DNA from: a virus
Lineage: Duplodnaviria > Heunggongvirae > Uroviricota > Caudoviricetes
Length of the DNA stretch: 7,850 bases
Reading direction: 5' to 3' (one strand)
IMG/VR virus record: IMGVR_UViG_2690316241_000021
Positions 1,061 to 7,850 of this stretch are shown here, in pieces (position 1 is the stretch's first letter; each line of letters starts with the position of its first letter). The position numbers and the translations under genes are program-made. Under the pieces are notes generated by a model. The model did not search any database. It saw only the letters and a program-made list of their open reading frames with translations, and was not told the DNA's origin.

Positions 1061-1190
1061 ATCATGATTGGACGGTGTAAGGACAACACCAACAAAAACA
1101 GGAAGTTAGCAGTCTCAGCAGGACACCGACCAGACGGTGAGGAGACAAAAAAGGATACGCAAAGGAGCCGCGGCTCTCAAGTGTGAAAGA

Positions 1191-1216
1191 AGCCCGCAAA
1201 TTGCGGGCTTTTTTAT
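1191..1216 (+). terminator. Rho-independent terminator downstream of ssrA
   Basis: GC-rich hairpin AGCCCGC-aaatt-GCGGGCT (1191-1209) followed by the T-tract TTTTTTATT. A short palindrome GAGCCGCGGCTC lies just upstream (1166-1177). Confidence 0.7.
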
Positions 1217-1269
1217 TGATCAGTCAACAATAAACAGTAACCGAATGAGAATTTAATAAGGATATTCAT

Positions 1270-2301
1270 ATGGAAGCTACTGTGGATTCGATTGATTTTC
1301 TGATCCGTAGTGAAGATGATTTTCTAAACTTTCTGGAAGAAATGAAAGCCCGAGAGGGGCTTGATTCTAAAGAGTTTATTTTCCCTAACGTAAAGTTTGC
1401 AGGCTGGCCATCCTTAGACATAAATGTAAAAGGAGAGCGGTATCATTCATCAATTACATCAGCAATGTTGTTTGGTATGTCAATGCTCAACGAGGAGATA
1501 CAGCGGGCGTTTGCAACCATACGATACGGATCGCAGAATCTTCAACGCTTGACTAATGAAGACAAGCAACGACTTGATATAAATTTTAAAATTAGCGAAG
1601 GTTCTAGTGATGCGGAAGGCACCACTGACAAGATCATCAACGCAGTAACTGATTTTTTGCGAGATACTATGTCTGGACTGAACGGCTGGCAGAAAATGCT
1701 TGTTATAATCACAATGGTTGGCGCGGCCAGCACATGTGGTTATCACTACATTTCAGAAAATGCCGTAACAGAAAGACATGCAACTGATCGGCAGGTTGAA
1801 ATTGCAAAAACCACATCCGATGGCATAAACAAAGCCATAGAAGCAACATTAGATTATAAAATCTATGGGAAATCAGCGATTAGCGATAAAGTTACTAGTC
1901 ACGGACAAGCAGGTAAAAGTGCTTTAGTGAAGCAATTAGCTGCTGATCCTACTGTCGAAACCGTGACTTTAGGAAATGAGAAACTAACACGACAAGACCT
2001 AAATACCTACAACAGCCGACAATCTGTAGATAGAGAACGTAAAGAACGAACTGATATATTTTCCATCAAAGGTGTAACCAGAACAGGGCCAACAAATCAG
2101 GATATTAATATTAACGTTGTTAGGGTCTCTAATGACGAATGCTTCACAATCAAAGCTTCAGCTGATGTTATCACCCAAGATGAGTTGACAGCTATTGTTG
2201 ACGCTTTGTCAAACAACTCTCATATTAAAATCAGTTACTTAGAGGTAATTGAAAAGGGTGCTGTTTCTATAGGTCAGTTCAACACTATTGTTTCAGAATA
2301 A
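1270..2301 (+). CDS. Hypothetical protein (343 aa), AT-rich accessory gene
   Basis: Long uninterrupted ORF with an SD-like AAGGA 7 nt upstream of the ATG. By eye it is clearly more AT-rich than smpB (not computed). One internal hydrophobic stretch (WQKMLVIITMVGAASTCGYHYI) could be a membrane helix. I recognise no conserved motif. Confidence 0.6.
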   Translation: MEATVDSIDFLIRSEDDFLNFLEEMKAREGLDSKEFIFPNVKFAGWPSLDINVKGERYHSSITSAMLFGMSMLNEEIQRAFATIRYGSQNLQRLTNEDKQRLDINFKISEGSSDAEGTTDKIINAVTDFLRDTMSGLNGWQKMLVIITMVGAASTCGYHYISENAVTERHATDRQVEIAKTTSDGINKAIEATLDYKIYGKSAISDKVTSHGQAGKSALVKQLAADPTVETVTLGNEKLTRQDLNTYNSRQSVDRERKERTDIFSIKGVTRTGPTNQDININVVRVSNDECFTIKASADVITQDELTAIVDALSNNSHIKISYLEVIEKGAVSIGQFNTIVSE

Positions 2302-2352
2302 TCACTTAACCCCATTTATGTCGGTTGAGGTTATAAGTCACGGAGACCAGAT

Positions 2353-2697
2353 ATGTCCTTAAAGTATGCACATGAAAAATTTCATACTGCAGTACTTACT
2401 CTTGCGGGCCATGGAAGTATTCAAGAACGCTTGATTAATTCGTATGTTTTTAGCCTTGGGCATCTTAAAACAGCCGATGATATTCCAAATGCCTTACAAA
2501 GCAGGTTCGATGAATTATGTAAGGAACTGACTAAGTTTGATGCCACTGGCGATGAGGGGCGAGTTCAAGCAACAGTATCAAAACTTAACGATTTCGAGAT
2601 CAATAAACTGATCGAAGATATTGTCAGTCTTAACGATGATATTTGCATGAAATTGGCTCTGACGGATGAGACTTACCAAGACATACACCAAAGTTAA
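2353..2697 (+). CDS. Hypothetical protein (114 aa), probable operon partner of the upstream ORF
   Basis: ORF with SD GGAGA 6 nt upstream of the ATG, 51 nt after the stop of the 343-aa ORF, same strand, similarly AT-rich. Its last four codons and stop (I-H-Q-S-TAA, 2683-2697) lie inside the outer end of the left inverted repeat. No recognisable motif. Confidence 0.5.
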   Translation: MSLKYAHEKFHTAVLTLAGHGSIQERLINSYVFSLGHLKTADDIPNALQSRFDELCKELTKFDATGDEGRVQATVSKLNDFEINKLIEDIVSLNDDICMKLALTDETYQDIHQS

Positions 2698-2724
2698 TTG
2701 ATTAAATTCAAAAAGTTAACGTTC

Positions 2725-2756
2725 AACCAGCCAGTTTTTGGCTGGTTTATTGTCTT
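2725..2756. terminator. Hairpin terminator (left copy), probably bidirectional
   Basis: Stem AACCAGCCA-gtttt-TGGCTGGTT (2725-2747) followed by TTTATTGTCTT on the plus strand. This suits termination of the 343/114-aa operon. On the minus strand it follows the 70-aa ORF with a weaker T-rich tail. Confidence 0.5.
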
Positions 2757-2781
2757 ATAATATTCTTGCTCGAATGATGCA

Positions 2782-2994
2782 CTATTTATGATGTAATCCG
2801 GACATCAGTTCATGGACAAGATTATCTCTTTCATTGTGTTGCAACCGTAAATGCATAGCAAAAAGGTGAGCACTATCCTCATTCCTCTTCAAGCCATGCT
2901 GTTCAAGATACCCGAAAAAACGGCTTCTCTTATCCGCTATTTCCTGAGTCTGACGTGCAACATTTACCAAATTTTCTAGCGTTTTTCTTGGCAT
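2782..2994 (-). CDS. Hypothetical small protein (70 aa), left copy
   Basis: ORF with a strong SD (AGGAGG, 7-nt spacer) lying downstream of the invertase within the repeat arm and followed by the hairpin. Identical to the copy at 6580-6792. Function not recognised. Confidence 0.55.
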   Translation of the reverse strand: MPRKTLENLVNVARQTQEIADKRSRFFGYLEQHGLKRNEDSAHLFAMHLRLQHNERDNLVHELMSGLHHK

Positions 2995-6381: not shown

Positions 6382-6579
6382 AGACACAGCTCGTCGAATT
6401 CAAGAACGTGTGAGCCAATCTCATGATGATTCATTATTTTCACATAGAGTCAATGACAAAAAACGGCTGCAAGGTAAACCACAACGATGGCTTTGTTAAT
6501 TGATAGCGGTTTTGGTACTAAATGATACAAATTAAAATGAATATCCTAGTGAATTACAACAATTTCAGGAGGAAATAGT

Positions 6580-6792
6580 ATGCCAAGAAAAACGCTAGAA
6601 AATTTGGTAAATGTTGCACGTCAGACTCAGGAAATAGCGGATAAGAGAAGCCGTTTTTTCGGGTATCTTGAACAGCATGGCTTGAAGAGGAATGAGGATA
6701 GTGCTCACCTTTTTGCTATGCATTTACGGTTGCAACACAATGAAAGAGATAATCTTGTCCATGAACTGATGTCCGGATTACATCATAAATAG
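6580..6792 (+). CDS. Hypothetical small protein (70 aa), right copy
   Basis: SD AGGAGG at 6567-6572 with a 7-nt spacer, then MPRKTLENLVNVARQTQEIADKRSRFFGYLEQHGLKRNEDSAHLFAMHLRLQHNERDNLVHELMSGLHHK. Followed by the hairpin at 6827-6849. Confidence 0.55.
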   Translation: MPRKTLENLVNVARQTQEIADKRSRFFGYLEQHGLKRNEDSAHLFAMHLRLQHNERDNLVHELMSGLHHK

Positions 6793-6818
6793 TGCATCAT
6801 TCGAGCAAGAATATTATA

Positions 6819-6849
6819 AGACAATAAACCAGCCAAAAACTGGCTGGTT
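6819..6849. terminator. Hairpin terminator (right copy), probably bidirectional
   Basis: AACCAGCCA-aaaac-TGGCTGGTT at 6827-6849. On the minus strand it is followed by TTTATTGTCTT, so it would stop transcripts coming from the tail-fibre constant region. Confidence 0.5.
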
Positions 6850-6872
6850 GAACGTTAACTTTTTGAATTTAA

Positions 6873-7196
6873 TCAATTAACTTTGGTGTATACTTCTCCC
6901 AAACCAAGGTTTTCGAGAGCCGTTTTCACCGTGCCATCAGATTTGATATCGCCAAACGGATTCTTGCGGCTTAACAGCAGCGCACGAAGCGCGGTAAGCA
7001 GCTGGTCATGCCGCCCCTTCTCCAGGCTGGCACCGGATGCCTCCACCACGCTGCAGAGTTCTTCCTGCAACATGTCAAAGTAGTCATCATCCAGATCGGT
7101 GGCAGGTGTGCCGGTCTGGGGGTTACCACGGGTAAAACCGTTCTTACCCGCGCCGAACTTATCCTTCTGCGCGGTTTTCGTGTCTATACGATGCAT
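6873..7196 (-). CDS. Tail-fibre N-terminal constant region (Sc analogue), ending in a repeat-encoded stub
   Basis: 107-aa ORF starting 3 nt after the stop of the upstream baseplate gene. Its 3' end runs through crossover site C and then reads only V-Y-T-K-V-N-stop from the repeat's outer end. Assigned from position and the in-frame crossover site, not from recognised homology. Confidence 0.55.
6894..6919. promoter_or_regulatory. hix/gix-like 26-bp crossover site C, inside the 3' end of the tail-fibre constant region
   Basis: TTCTCCCAAACC-AA-GGTTTTCGAGAG. Its first 14 nt are identical to site B and it is a near-palindrome of the hixL type. It lies 3 bp outside the repeat arm. On the minus strand it encodes ...ENLGLGE, in the same frame relative to the core as the ...NVGLGE encoded at sites A and B. 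Confidence 0.65.
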
Positions 7197-7199
7197 GGA

Positions 7200-7811
7200 T
7201 TACTCCGGATATTTAAAAATTACGTAGGTATGCGAAGGGCAGAGTTTGTTAAGCACACACTCGACAACGGTGTCGCCCCAGATACGCAGTGCGGAATCAC
7301 AGGGATCACCACATGTCATCCAGGTGGTGTTGGTGGCAGCTGGCATGTTGACCTGCCAGTAATACCGCCATTCCGGCGCATTCACCGCGTCAGTACAGGC
7401 CGATGAGCAGGTGAAGGTGCTTTTGTCGTATCGCGTGATGGTGGCATCTGGTCTGCCCAGGGCAGCAAGCTGTGCAAGATAAAAATCCTCGTTGATGCCG
7501 CCCGCCAGGTTAACCTTCGCATCCAGCCGTTGCTGACGCTGGCGAAGGGTCTGTGTCCCTGCGGGAATACATTCATCCGGCAGGCCGCACAGACGCTCCC
7601 AGCGGTTTATCAGTTCGGTGGTGGTGCGCGGATCCAGCTCCCGCATCAGGGCATCCGCACGCTGATGAACACGGGTTAATGACGGTGCCGCACCGGCAAT
7701 CGCCGGATCGCTGGCTGACCACGCCGGACCGGGCGGCAACAGTGCCGATAACAGGCGGATGTAGTGGCACACTAAATTTGGCCACCTGATGAAAGGTGAT
7801 ATTCTCACCAC
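7200..7811 (-). CDS. Phage baseplate/tail protein, P2 gpI / Mu gp48 (DUF2313)-like
   Basis: About 203-aa ORF with [12 protein letters not shown] and LNKLCPSHT motifs, recalled as typical of the tail-protein-I family that precedes tail-fibre genes in Mu, P2 and e14. The start is uncertain: the track begins at GTG 7811 and the first ATG is far downstream. The window ends at 7850. Confidence 0.55.
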
Positions 7812-7850
7812 AACACAAAACAGGTGACTTAATGAACAAGAAAACCAAAC

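Follow-up and report, generated by a model that had tools for sequence, protein, structure and literature searches.

Why should phage tail genes directly follow the tmRNA gene ssrA with neither an integrase nor a repeated ssrA 3' end in view? We analysed a stretch of 7,850 nucleotides (the window), which is identical to positions 5719-13568 of contig CYBL01000042.1 of GCA_001284025.1 save for base 6892, where that record has an N. Judged from its sequence, the region 3' of ssrA is most probably the end of a prophage distal to its integrase, and window 1062-7759 is very probably what is left of an e14/LLS-type temperate phage, integrated at ssrA and truncated by IS3.

Gene content and the search for an integrase

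The remnant contains, in order, a flank with its terminator, three cargo ORFs, pinE, an invertible tail-fibre segment, the constant part of the fibre gene and ymfQ (Table 1). This agrees with the original prediction, in which ssrA is followed by a terminator, accessory ORFs and invertase/tail-fibre genes: a strong hairpin at 1186-1214, trailed by a T-run (-19.3 kcal/mol, z = -4.8), precedes ORF343 and ORF114 and then the fibre region. The hairpin escaped a consensus terminator scan and was confirmed by folding. The predicted tail module does hold fibre genes, although it extends only to these and ymfQ'. Namely, the phage structural genes present encode a Mu Gp48-like YmfQ, a tail-fibre N-terminus, Collar and Gp53-like C-termini and two Caudo_TAP chaperones. 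Searches of the cargo ORFs against Pfam, PADLOC and PDB sequences returned nothing. AlphaFold modelled ORF343 poorly (pLDDT 59.7), and a Foldseek search with this model gave no match at E <= 0.001, yielding only weak, OB-fold-like matches to the C-terminal domain.

Table 1 Features of the window, with the strand and basis of each assignment.
Feature	Position	Strand	Basis or remark
ssrA (tmRNA gene), host gene and attachment site	698-1060	+	ARAGORN; Rfam RF00023, 295.8 bits
att core, 30-31 nt of ssrA 3' end (ACGCGGGTTCAACTCCCGCCAGCTCCACCA+A)	1031-1061	+	100% match to HE302 15112-15142
Phage-borne flank and intrinsic terminator, left end of remnant	1062-1220	+	LLS/K-12 identity; fold
Cargo ORF343	1270-2301	+	phrog_6191; Enterobacterales only; no assigned function
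Cargo ORF114	2353-2697	+	No family match
ORF70, small, downstream of pinE	2782-2994	-	No family match
pinE, serine DNA invertase (184 aa), genuine copy	3193-3747	-	Resolvase + HTH_7; 97.8% to e14 PinE
26-bp crossover site, pin-side type (TTTTCATAAACGTTGGTTTGGGAGAA)	3802-3827		Identical to e14 pin-side site
Invertible segment	3829-5745		Collar, Caudo_TAP x2, Gp53-like_C domains
Sv(B)	3777-4286	+	Invertible segment
Tfa(B)	4283-4888	+	Invertible segment
Tfa(A)	4860-5303	-	Invertible segment
Sv(A)	5306-5745	-	Invertible segment
Artefactual inverted second copy of 2683-3828	5746-6891		100% inverted repeat; N follows in source record
One-base scaffold gap (inferred)	6892		N in GCA_001284025.1 CYBL01000042.1, A in window
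Constant N-terminal part (Sc) of tail-fibre gene	6893-7196	-	PHROG tail fibre, 1e-54
Sc-side crossover site, at end of Sc	6894-6919		Identical to e14's site
ymfQ' (Mu Gp48-like baseplate protein gene), without 5' end	7200-7759	-	PF10076
IS3-family element, left end (TGTAGTGGCACAC...)	7760-7850	+	100% identical to IS3 left end, HE302 20228-20318

Recombinase domains in the window's ORFs were confined to the Resolvase and HTH_7 domains of the serine invertase Pin (PF00239, 1.8e-51; PF02796, 4e-13), with no tyrosine integrase among them. Querying the window by tblastn with six tyrosine integrases and one excisionase, drawn from HE302, NWU_1, K-12 IntA and phage LLS, produced noise only (best E = 0.05). 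Similarly, when the terminal 32 nt and 17 nt of ssrA were searched for on either strand, allowing up to 3 mismatches, they matched ssrA alone within the window, and a repeat finder detected no direct repeat of the ssrA end there. The prediction by eye that positions 1061-7850 contain neither an integrase nor a second ssrA terminus thus withstood careful computational search. Lacking both an integrase and a far repeat, the window therefore holds a remnant and not a complete ssrA-integrated prophage.

Intact relatives and the boundary at IS3

Comparison with related strains, as had been proposed, placed the boundaries of the remnant at the ssrA end (1061/1062), where divergence from other E. coli begins, and at IS3 (7760). 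The att core, single-copy in the window, recurs as a far-end repeat in intact relatives. In E. coli HE302, the near side reads ssrA, the same flank, cargo, pinE and ymfQ; past ymfQ come baseplate, sheath, tube, capsid, portal, terminase and lysis genes, Q, cI/cro and xis; HE302 combines lambdoid early genes with a baseplate and tail of Mu-like type. A tyrosine integrase (Arm-DNA-bind_2 + Phage_integrase; 86.7% identical to the integrase of phage LLS) lies ~37 kb off at the far end, followed by cargo with DarTG, an exact 31-nt repeat of the ssrA 3' end and CP4-57 left-end sequence. NWU_1 has a similar layout with a 34-nt ssrA repeat, but with the yggR region as its far flank it serves poorly as a reference; PS1Thumoskin9 likewise carries a tyrosine integrase at the far end. 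Remnants of CP4-57-like islands beyond attR in both HE302 and NWU_1 point to tandem accretion at the ssrA site.

The true right boundary, an IS3-family left end, had gone unremarked in the original prediction. Its left terminal repeat starts at 7760 (homology to intact ymfQ ends at 7763), the transposase orfA ATG lies at 7832, and only the left end falls inside the window. The source contig stops within IS3 at 7852, 2 nt past the window, so that the proposed extension to the right cannot be made in that assembly. Window 7760-7850 matches the left end of the IS3 copy that abuts ypjA' in HE302, and PGAP annotates the element in relatives as an IS3 family transposase with programmed frameshift. 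We found the ymfQ'-IS3 junction in 3 of 5426 complete genomes; all three continue from IS3 into truncated ypjA', pinH', ypjCB and ileY, and within 25 kb neither an integrase nor an ssrA repeat occurs in them. The junction of IS3 with ypjA' on its right is identical in 602687 and HE302.

These comparisons qualify both forms of the original prediction. An integrase-distal prophage end is what HE302 and NWU_1 display, but the integrase expected beyond the window does not follow in the three same-junction genomes. Decay is evident where IS3 cuts ymfQ, although calling the locus a decayed remnant describes it in part only, since it is also an integrase-distal end. Searching the surroundings in relatives recovered an integrase and a repeat in HE302 and NWU_1, but no far ssrA repeat or integrase within 25 kb in 602687 or CD45.

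An unlikely alternative is that the prophage was split or interrupted and not deleted, with IS3 either a plain insertion or one end of an IS-mediated inversion, and the integrase and attR persisting just past IS3 or beside a distant IS3 copy. The source contig ends within IS3, leaving the far side unseen, and one sibling draft crosses IS3 into another flank matching DNA beside yggR, which also borders the ssrA island of NWU_1; in some lineages, IS3 may thus mark an inversion or a chimeric contig instead of a deletion. However, this flank comes from a short-read contig running through a multicopy IS and is possibly chimeric. Moreover, IS3 has no target-site duplication (left flank GGCGGA versus right flank GTGTGA in relatives), and IS3 leads into ypjA', with no integrase, in each of the three complete genomes that share the 161-nt junction exactly.

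The genes present, the att core, the junction with IS3, the N and the arrangement seen in relatives and in phage LLS were all observed directly; from them we infer the following order of events for the IS3-truncated prophage. A tyrosine integrase would have put the phage into the last 30-31 nt of ssrA. The attP of this class sits between the integrase and the tail-fibre/invertase/cargo end, and the attP-adjacent phage side brings a copy of the ssrA 3' end and a terminator. Integration would yield intact ssrA, flank, terminator, cargo, pinE, invertible fibre segment, constant fibre part and ymfQ, with the integrase, more cargo and the displaced ssrA 3' fragment landing ~37-40 kb off. In the window's lineage, an IS3-family element has come to sit within ymfQ at 7760. 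Relative to an HE302-like ancestor, ~39 kb would be gone, comprising the remaining prophage, integrase, attR and CP4-57-like island remnants; in the sequenced isolate this was probably a deletion and not another IS-mediated rearrangement. The integrase and the ssrA repeat would be unseen because of this loss beside IS3.

The Pin switch and an apparent duplication of pinE

The fibre genes belong to a Pin inversion system whose two 26-bp crossover sites, in inverted orientation, are the two sites of e14. The segment between them lies in opposite orientations in the near-identical relatives 602687 and CD45 (2-3 SNPs from the window), and both pin/Sv junctions occur in the source draft. The gene, annotated pinE in relatives, is 94% identical in DNA to e14 pinE, and a Fis-dependent enhancer within it is assumed from the sequence to be conserved.

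Two further observations had been missed by the first reading of the DNA: a perfect inverted repeat that doubles pinE, and the N at base 6892 of the source record. A repeat finder measured the repeat at 1146 nt; the second copy contains a crossover site (5747-5772), pinE, ORF70 and the last 15 nt of ORF114. We conclude that this duplication is not real. One of its joins is an ordinary Pin-site junction, and the other, its sole novel junction, coincides with the N. We searched 5426 complete genomes, GTDB representative genomes and metagenome contigs, and the novel junction was missing from all of them. Three sibling drafts contain other, mutually inconsistent duplications, some with chimeric ORFs, and every abnormal junction falls at an N run. 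The position of the N and these sibling assemblies together suggest an unclosed scaffold gap. In silico deletion of 5760-6906 (1147 bp) gives the CD45 sequence exactly, apart from 3 SNPs, and restores the 247-aa fibre of CD45. The apparent 107-aa Sc ORF, with its stop at 6873, is thus a product of the assembly artefact; an exact look-up found this stub 'not on record' even though the source contig itself carries the gene call, so that this negative is uninformative.

We suggest that the sequenced culture held both segment orientations because Pin still inverts the 1.9-kb fibre segment. Short-read scaffolding and gap-filling may have traced the minority-orientation pin/Sv(A) junction back into pinE and ORF70, which would have produced a false 1146-nt inverted copy stopping at the one-N gap; the exact route taken by the assembler is our reconstruction.

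A genuine duplication, with the N a single uncalled base, would make this a three-site Pin system with the fibre gene off (the 107-aa stub), and we regard it as very improbable. If real, it would give the Pin locus A, B and 'off' states, lock a second pinE copy in inverted orientation beyond removal by homologous recombination (RecA), and mean that a 1147-bp invertase cassette had been copied to a second crossover site. The repeat arms are perfect, and the structure formally equals a Pin inversion between the outer sites of a 1147-bp tandem duplication or, equally, the product of a 1147-bp circle integrating into the Sc-side site. Against this, the one junction that Pin cannot make is the N of the record, the structure was found nowhere else in the public data searched, the siblings' duplications differ, are mutually exclusive and have Ns at each join, and the right block starts at 6893, the first of 20 nt common to the three sites and hence probably a branch point in the assembly graph.

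Other origins for the structure were tried and rejected. Had Pin excised a circle by recombining the pin-side site with a quasi-site near 2683, a hybrid site should remain, but the Sc-side site is unbroken and no half-site is formed by the sequence to the left of 2683; the position of a quasi-site ACCAAAGTT at 2687-2695 misfits the end of the repeat arm. Template switching or tandem-inversion duplication at the 6891-a-6893 junction finds no microhomology in either parental orientation, and import of this junction from another locus is contradicted by its absence from all complete genomes. A third Sv cassette type starting '...ata' was also considered; PM06121 has gata-a-TTCTCC, a chance resemblance.

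For scans of sequence data, the artefact serves as a warning that an actively inverting segment in a short-read draft can make a recombinase gene look perfectly duplicated, in inverted orientation, over 1.1 kb. Its sole tell-tale was one N, shown as A in the window.

The flank and its place among known phages

The flank at 1062-1220 is ~90% identical to the attP-adjacent region of phage LLS and 89% identical to the K-12 psaA-ypjA spacer, and is probably phage-borne here; its ultimate source may be phage or host DNA. It is hardly credible that a tail-fibre/invertase cassette landed after the native ssrA terminator by some other route: although flank and terminator are widespread (88-94% identity in ~4300 E. 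coli genomes, beside ssrA or after psaA, including strains without the element), the window's allele is shared at 100% with only the 45 element-carrying genomes and is ~9-12% diverged in the remainder, intact copies extend from the ssrA end to an exact 31-nt copy of it and have a matching integrase, and LLS virion DNA has the flank next to attP.

One close likeness to the ssrA-integrated prophage end is the cryptic prophage e14 of E. coli K-12, whose integrase-distal end (ymfQ-stfP-tfaP-tfaE-stfE-pinE-mcrA) undergoes Pin/P-segment inversion. Both have ymfQ, the constant fibre part, two opposed Sv/Tfa cassettes, pinE, cargo and an att site in equal order, with Pin 97.8% identical, both 26-bp sites identical and ymfQ-Sc DNA 97% identical. 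In contrast, e14 is integrated in icd, its cargo past pinE is mcrA and not ORF70/ORF114/ORF343, and its Sv/Tfa cassettes are partly different (88-91% identity or no match).

Escherichia phage LLS (PQ299149) shares the integrase class of the HE302 relative (~87% identical) and has the ssrA 3' core in its attP, with a flank/terminator ~90% identical to window 1015-1217. From a 29-bp match to ssrA, this phage is predicted to integrate there (PMC12315714). Virion DNA has the order int, gp31, attP (a tmRNA pseudogene), flank, cargo, serine invertase and opposed invertible tail fibres (PMC12315714), and the tail-fibre end should therefore always abut intact ssrA once such a phage has integrated. LLS differs in being a lambda-like siphovirus with a J-type central fibre, other cargo genes, a Fin invertase just 79% identical and 57-nt inverted repeats at the fibre switch.

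The P4-like island CP4-57 of K-12 shares the ssrA 3' end as target, but carries intA directly behind ssrA and lacks phage structural genes, and its IntA is unrelated in sequence to the HE302/LLS integrase (17% identity; PMC12315714). This layout is absent from the window, where the terminator and ORF343 follow ssrA with no integrase similarity in any frame. The Mu G and P1 C segments (Gin, Cin) likewise set a serine invertase beside an invertible tail-fibre segment, swapping fibre C-termini and assembly chaperones behind a constant N-terminal part. They belong to other phages and use other sites, and the switch in the window, unlike theirs, lies in a dead remnant where neither a baseplate nor a tail survives to bear a fibre.

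In aggregate, the locus is an ordinary remnant of a decayed prophage. Its phage class has been sequenced before (e14, LLS) and is annotated in RefSeq genomes, and the biological weight of the locus is small: it adds a further decayed prophage to those at ssrA, a busy site of integration. The premise of the original prediction, that an integrase directly follows the ssrA 3' end, does not apply to this class, as LLS places its cargo/invertase/fibre side there. The rule of thumb that an integrase sits beside the tRNA or tmRNA gene breaks for a whole class of coliphages, those whose attP puts the tail-fibre, invertase and cargo end next to ssrA.

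Prophage end beside ssrA

Downstream of smpB and ssrA, across which GC content is ~0.52, the window falls to 0.37–0.44 GC at 1200-3200. Next to ssrA come a flank and terminator, then ORF343 and ORF114 on the plus strand, and ORF70 and the serine DNA invertase gene pinE on the minus strand. Beyond these lie an invertible segment, in which the variable fibre and chaperone cassette Sv(B)-Tfa(B) opposes Tfa(A)-Sv(A), and then, on the minus strand, the constant tail-fibre N-terminus (Sc) and the Mu Gp48-like baseplate gene ymfQ. We found no second match in the window to the last 32 or last 17 nt of ssrA on either strand with up to 3 mismatches, and a repeat finder returned no direct repeat of the ssrA end there. 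Pfam detected a single kind of recombinase in the window (Resolvase plus HTH_7, the Pin invertase), and tblastn of six tyrosine integrases and one excisionase from related elements against it gave only noise. With a terminator hairpin also seen after ssrA, the original prediction of a tail module abutting ssrA, with neither an integrase nor a repeated ssrA 3' end in view, is correct as stated.

Features of the window and of related loci (L-prefixed positions are in locus coordinates)
Feature	Position	Remark
smpB	1-483	window start
ssrA	698-1060	ARAGORN; Rfam 295.8 bits
att core	1031-1061	ssrA 3' end, ACGCGGGTTCAACTCCCGCCAGCTCCACCA
Palindrome	1058-1071	CCAATCATGATTGG; perfect, 14 nt, across the CCA end of ssrA
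Terminator after ssrA	1186-1214	strong hairpin with T-run
ORF343-ORF114	1270-2697	low GC
Inverted repeat arms	2683-3828 and 5746-6891	perfect, 1146 nt
Hairpin between ORF114 and ORF70	2725-2747 (copy 6827-6849)	10-bp stem, T-runs on both sides; ORFs convergent
End of ymfQ homology	7763
Start of IS3-family element	7760	100% identical to its left end, TGTAGTGGCACAC...
Integrase-attR slot, HE302	L008 13667-14983	DarTG
Integrase-attR slot, NWU_1	L005 13887-16599	AAA ATPase and Dam-type methylase
Integrase-attR slot, PS1Thumoskin9	L012 14990-15898	DUF4760 protein

Also expected was an integrase directly after ssrA, a premise that fails for this class of phage. E. coli HE302 shares the ssrA junction and cargo and continues into a complete prophage (baseplate, sheath, tube, capsid, portal, terminase, lysis, Q, replication, cI/cro and xis), with a 389-aa tyrosine integrase beyond the xis end, ~37 kb from ssrA. 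The integrase is followed by DarTG, an exact 31-nt repeat of the att core and the left end of the K-12 island CP4-57. NWU_1 repeats this pattern, but its cargo is different and its repeat measures 34 nt. PS1Thumoskin9 has a more recent phage of this integrase class inserted between ssrA and a remnant of the window's type, the integrase end of the newcomer likewise facing away from ssrA. Virion DNA of Escherichia phage LLS, whose integrase is 86.7% identical to that of HE302, runs int, gp31, attP (annotated as a tmRNA pseudogene), flank, cargo, serine invertase and opposed tail fibres, and its flank shares ~90% identity with window 1015-1217. The paper on this phage describes a 29-bp match to ssrA and predicts that integration occurs there (PMC12315714). 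Given these layouts, a tail-fibre and invertase end beside ssrA is the usual arrangement in the LLS/HE302 class and no anomaly. Separately, each intact relative carries different cargo between integrase and attR, which has the look of a variable slot for cargo and possibly of a defence hotspot.

The integrase-distal end of the K-12 cryptic prophage e14 has the same gene order, a PinE 97.8% identical to the window's Pin and 26-bp crossover sites that match letter for letter. The segment lies in opposite orientations in the near-identical complete genomes 602687 and CD45; thus, the switch has been active recently. The hairpin between ORF114 and ORF70 is likely to be a bidirectional terminator.

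IS3 truncation of ymfQ

Past ymfQ, the window enters an IS3-family element, which in HE302 adjoins truncated ypjA; no target-site duplication was found at the IS3. Of 5426 complete genomes, 45 have the ssrA-flank-ORF343 junction and 3 the identical ymfQ'-IS3 junction; each of these three continues past the IS3 into ypjA', a pinH fragment, ypjCB and ileY. Relative to an HE302-like ancestor, ~39 kb is missing. Both readings offered for the prophage end, integrase-distal and decayed, hold, the first through the layouts of HE302, NWU_1 and LLS and the second through the IS3 truncation; an integrase still lying beyond the window is unlikely, as neither integrase nor ssrA repeat is present within 25 kb in any of these three genomes.

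The source contig ends 2 nt past the window, inside IS3, so the window cannot be extended rightward in that assembly. The remnant runs from the ssrA end to the IS3, and in the three genomes the IS3 meets ypjA'; the isolate's own DNA past IS3 is not in its contig. The ssrA island of NWU_1 adjoins yggR rather than ypjA at its far end, and the sibling draft L013 passes from IS3 into this same yggR-proximal DNA (L005 9832-9908; L013 13987-14063). For L013 this may mean that the contig is chimeric or that, in some lineages, an IS has rearranged the region; unless L013 is chimeric, the border shared with NWU_1 could stem from a large inversion of the chromosome, mediated by an IS or a prophage, in some lineages.

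Flank and cargo after ssrA

Window 1046-1220 is 89% identical to K-12 DNA that extends from psaA, the ssrA fragment displaced to the right end of CP4-57, and stops just short of ypjA (L006 23473-23644). Such flanks occur at 88–94% identity in ~4300 E. coli genomes, and a nearby pinH fragment is 85% identical to pin across 143 nt. Flank and pinH' together suggest that the backbone usually seen in E. coli beyond ssrA may itself be what is left of an earlier phage of this class, so that most E. coli may carry an ssrA terminator of phage origin. The palindrome CCAATCATGATTGG, kept in the LLS attP region and the K-12 psaA flank, is a candidate protein-binding element within the att site.

ORF343 belongs to phrog_6191 and to an Enterobacterales-only family of 'hypothetical proteins'. 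It had no Pfam, PADLOC or PDB match, and structure prediction with fold search gave no informative match, only a C-terminal beta domain being modelled confidently. As e14 carries mcrA at this position, between att site and invertase, a defence role for ORF343/ORF114 is conceivable by analogy.

Apparent inverted duplication of pinE-ORF70

The inverted repeat, whose arms enclose the invertible fibre segment, creates a second pinE and ORF70 and a third crossover site, and cuts the tail-fibre gene to 107 aa. Its junction is absent from complete genomes (n = 5426), GTDB representative genomes and metagenome contigs; the best complete genome covers 86% of the window, namely the window minus one arm. 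Recombining the two direct sites in silico excises 1147 bp and leaves precisely the CD45 sequence, apart from 3 SNPs; inverting the DNA between the outer sites gives 602687 with a tandem duplication added. The single join beyond Pin's making is 6891-a-6893. Exact protein matching of the window's private Tfa(B) variant led to the source, GCA_001284025.1 contig CYBL01000042.1 (L014 5719-13568). Every base of the window agrees with it but 6892, which reads 'A' in the window and N in the record; ambiguity codes seem to have been substituted during preparation of the window. The right-hand block starts at 6893, the first of 20 nt common to all three site copies, the kind of position at which one expects an assembly graph to fork.

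Draft assemblies sharing this Tfa(B) variant are mutually inconsistent here: the form in L013 is the normal, single-copy one, L015 carries Sc on both sides of the segment, L017 has a chimeric Resolvase plus Caudo_TAP ORF and in L019 nrdI is fused to the tail-fibre Collar domain. Abnormal joins in L015-L017 fall at N runs, mostly single N's. Because of the N at 6892, these inconsistent siblings with N at their joins and the absence of the junction elsewhere, we conclude that the duplication is an artefact of scaffolding or gap filling, from a culture that held the segment in both orientations. Most likely, the locus really has the 6703-bp single-copy form. Public drafts L015, L016, L017 and L019 all contain chimeric structures in this region, and chimeric ORFs from them have spread into protein databases as predicted proteins.

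The original prediction is confirmed and explained: the region is the integrase-distal end, cut short by IS3, of a phage from a known class that integrates at ssrA, and the one structure in the window that stands out as unusual is an artefact of assembly.
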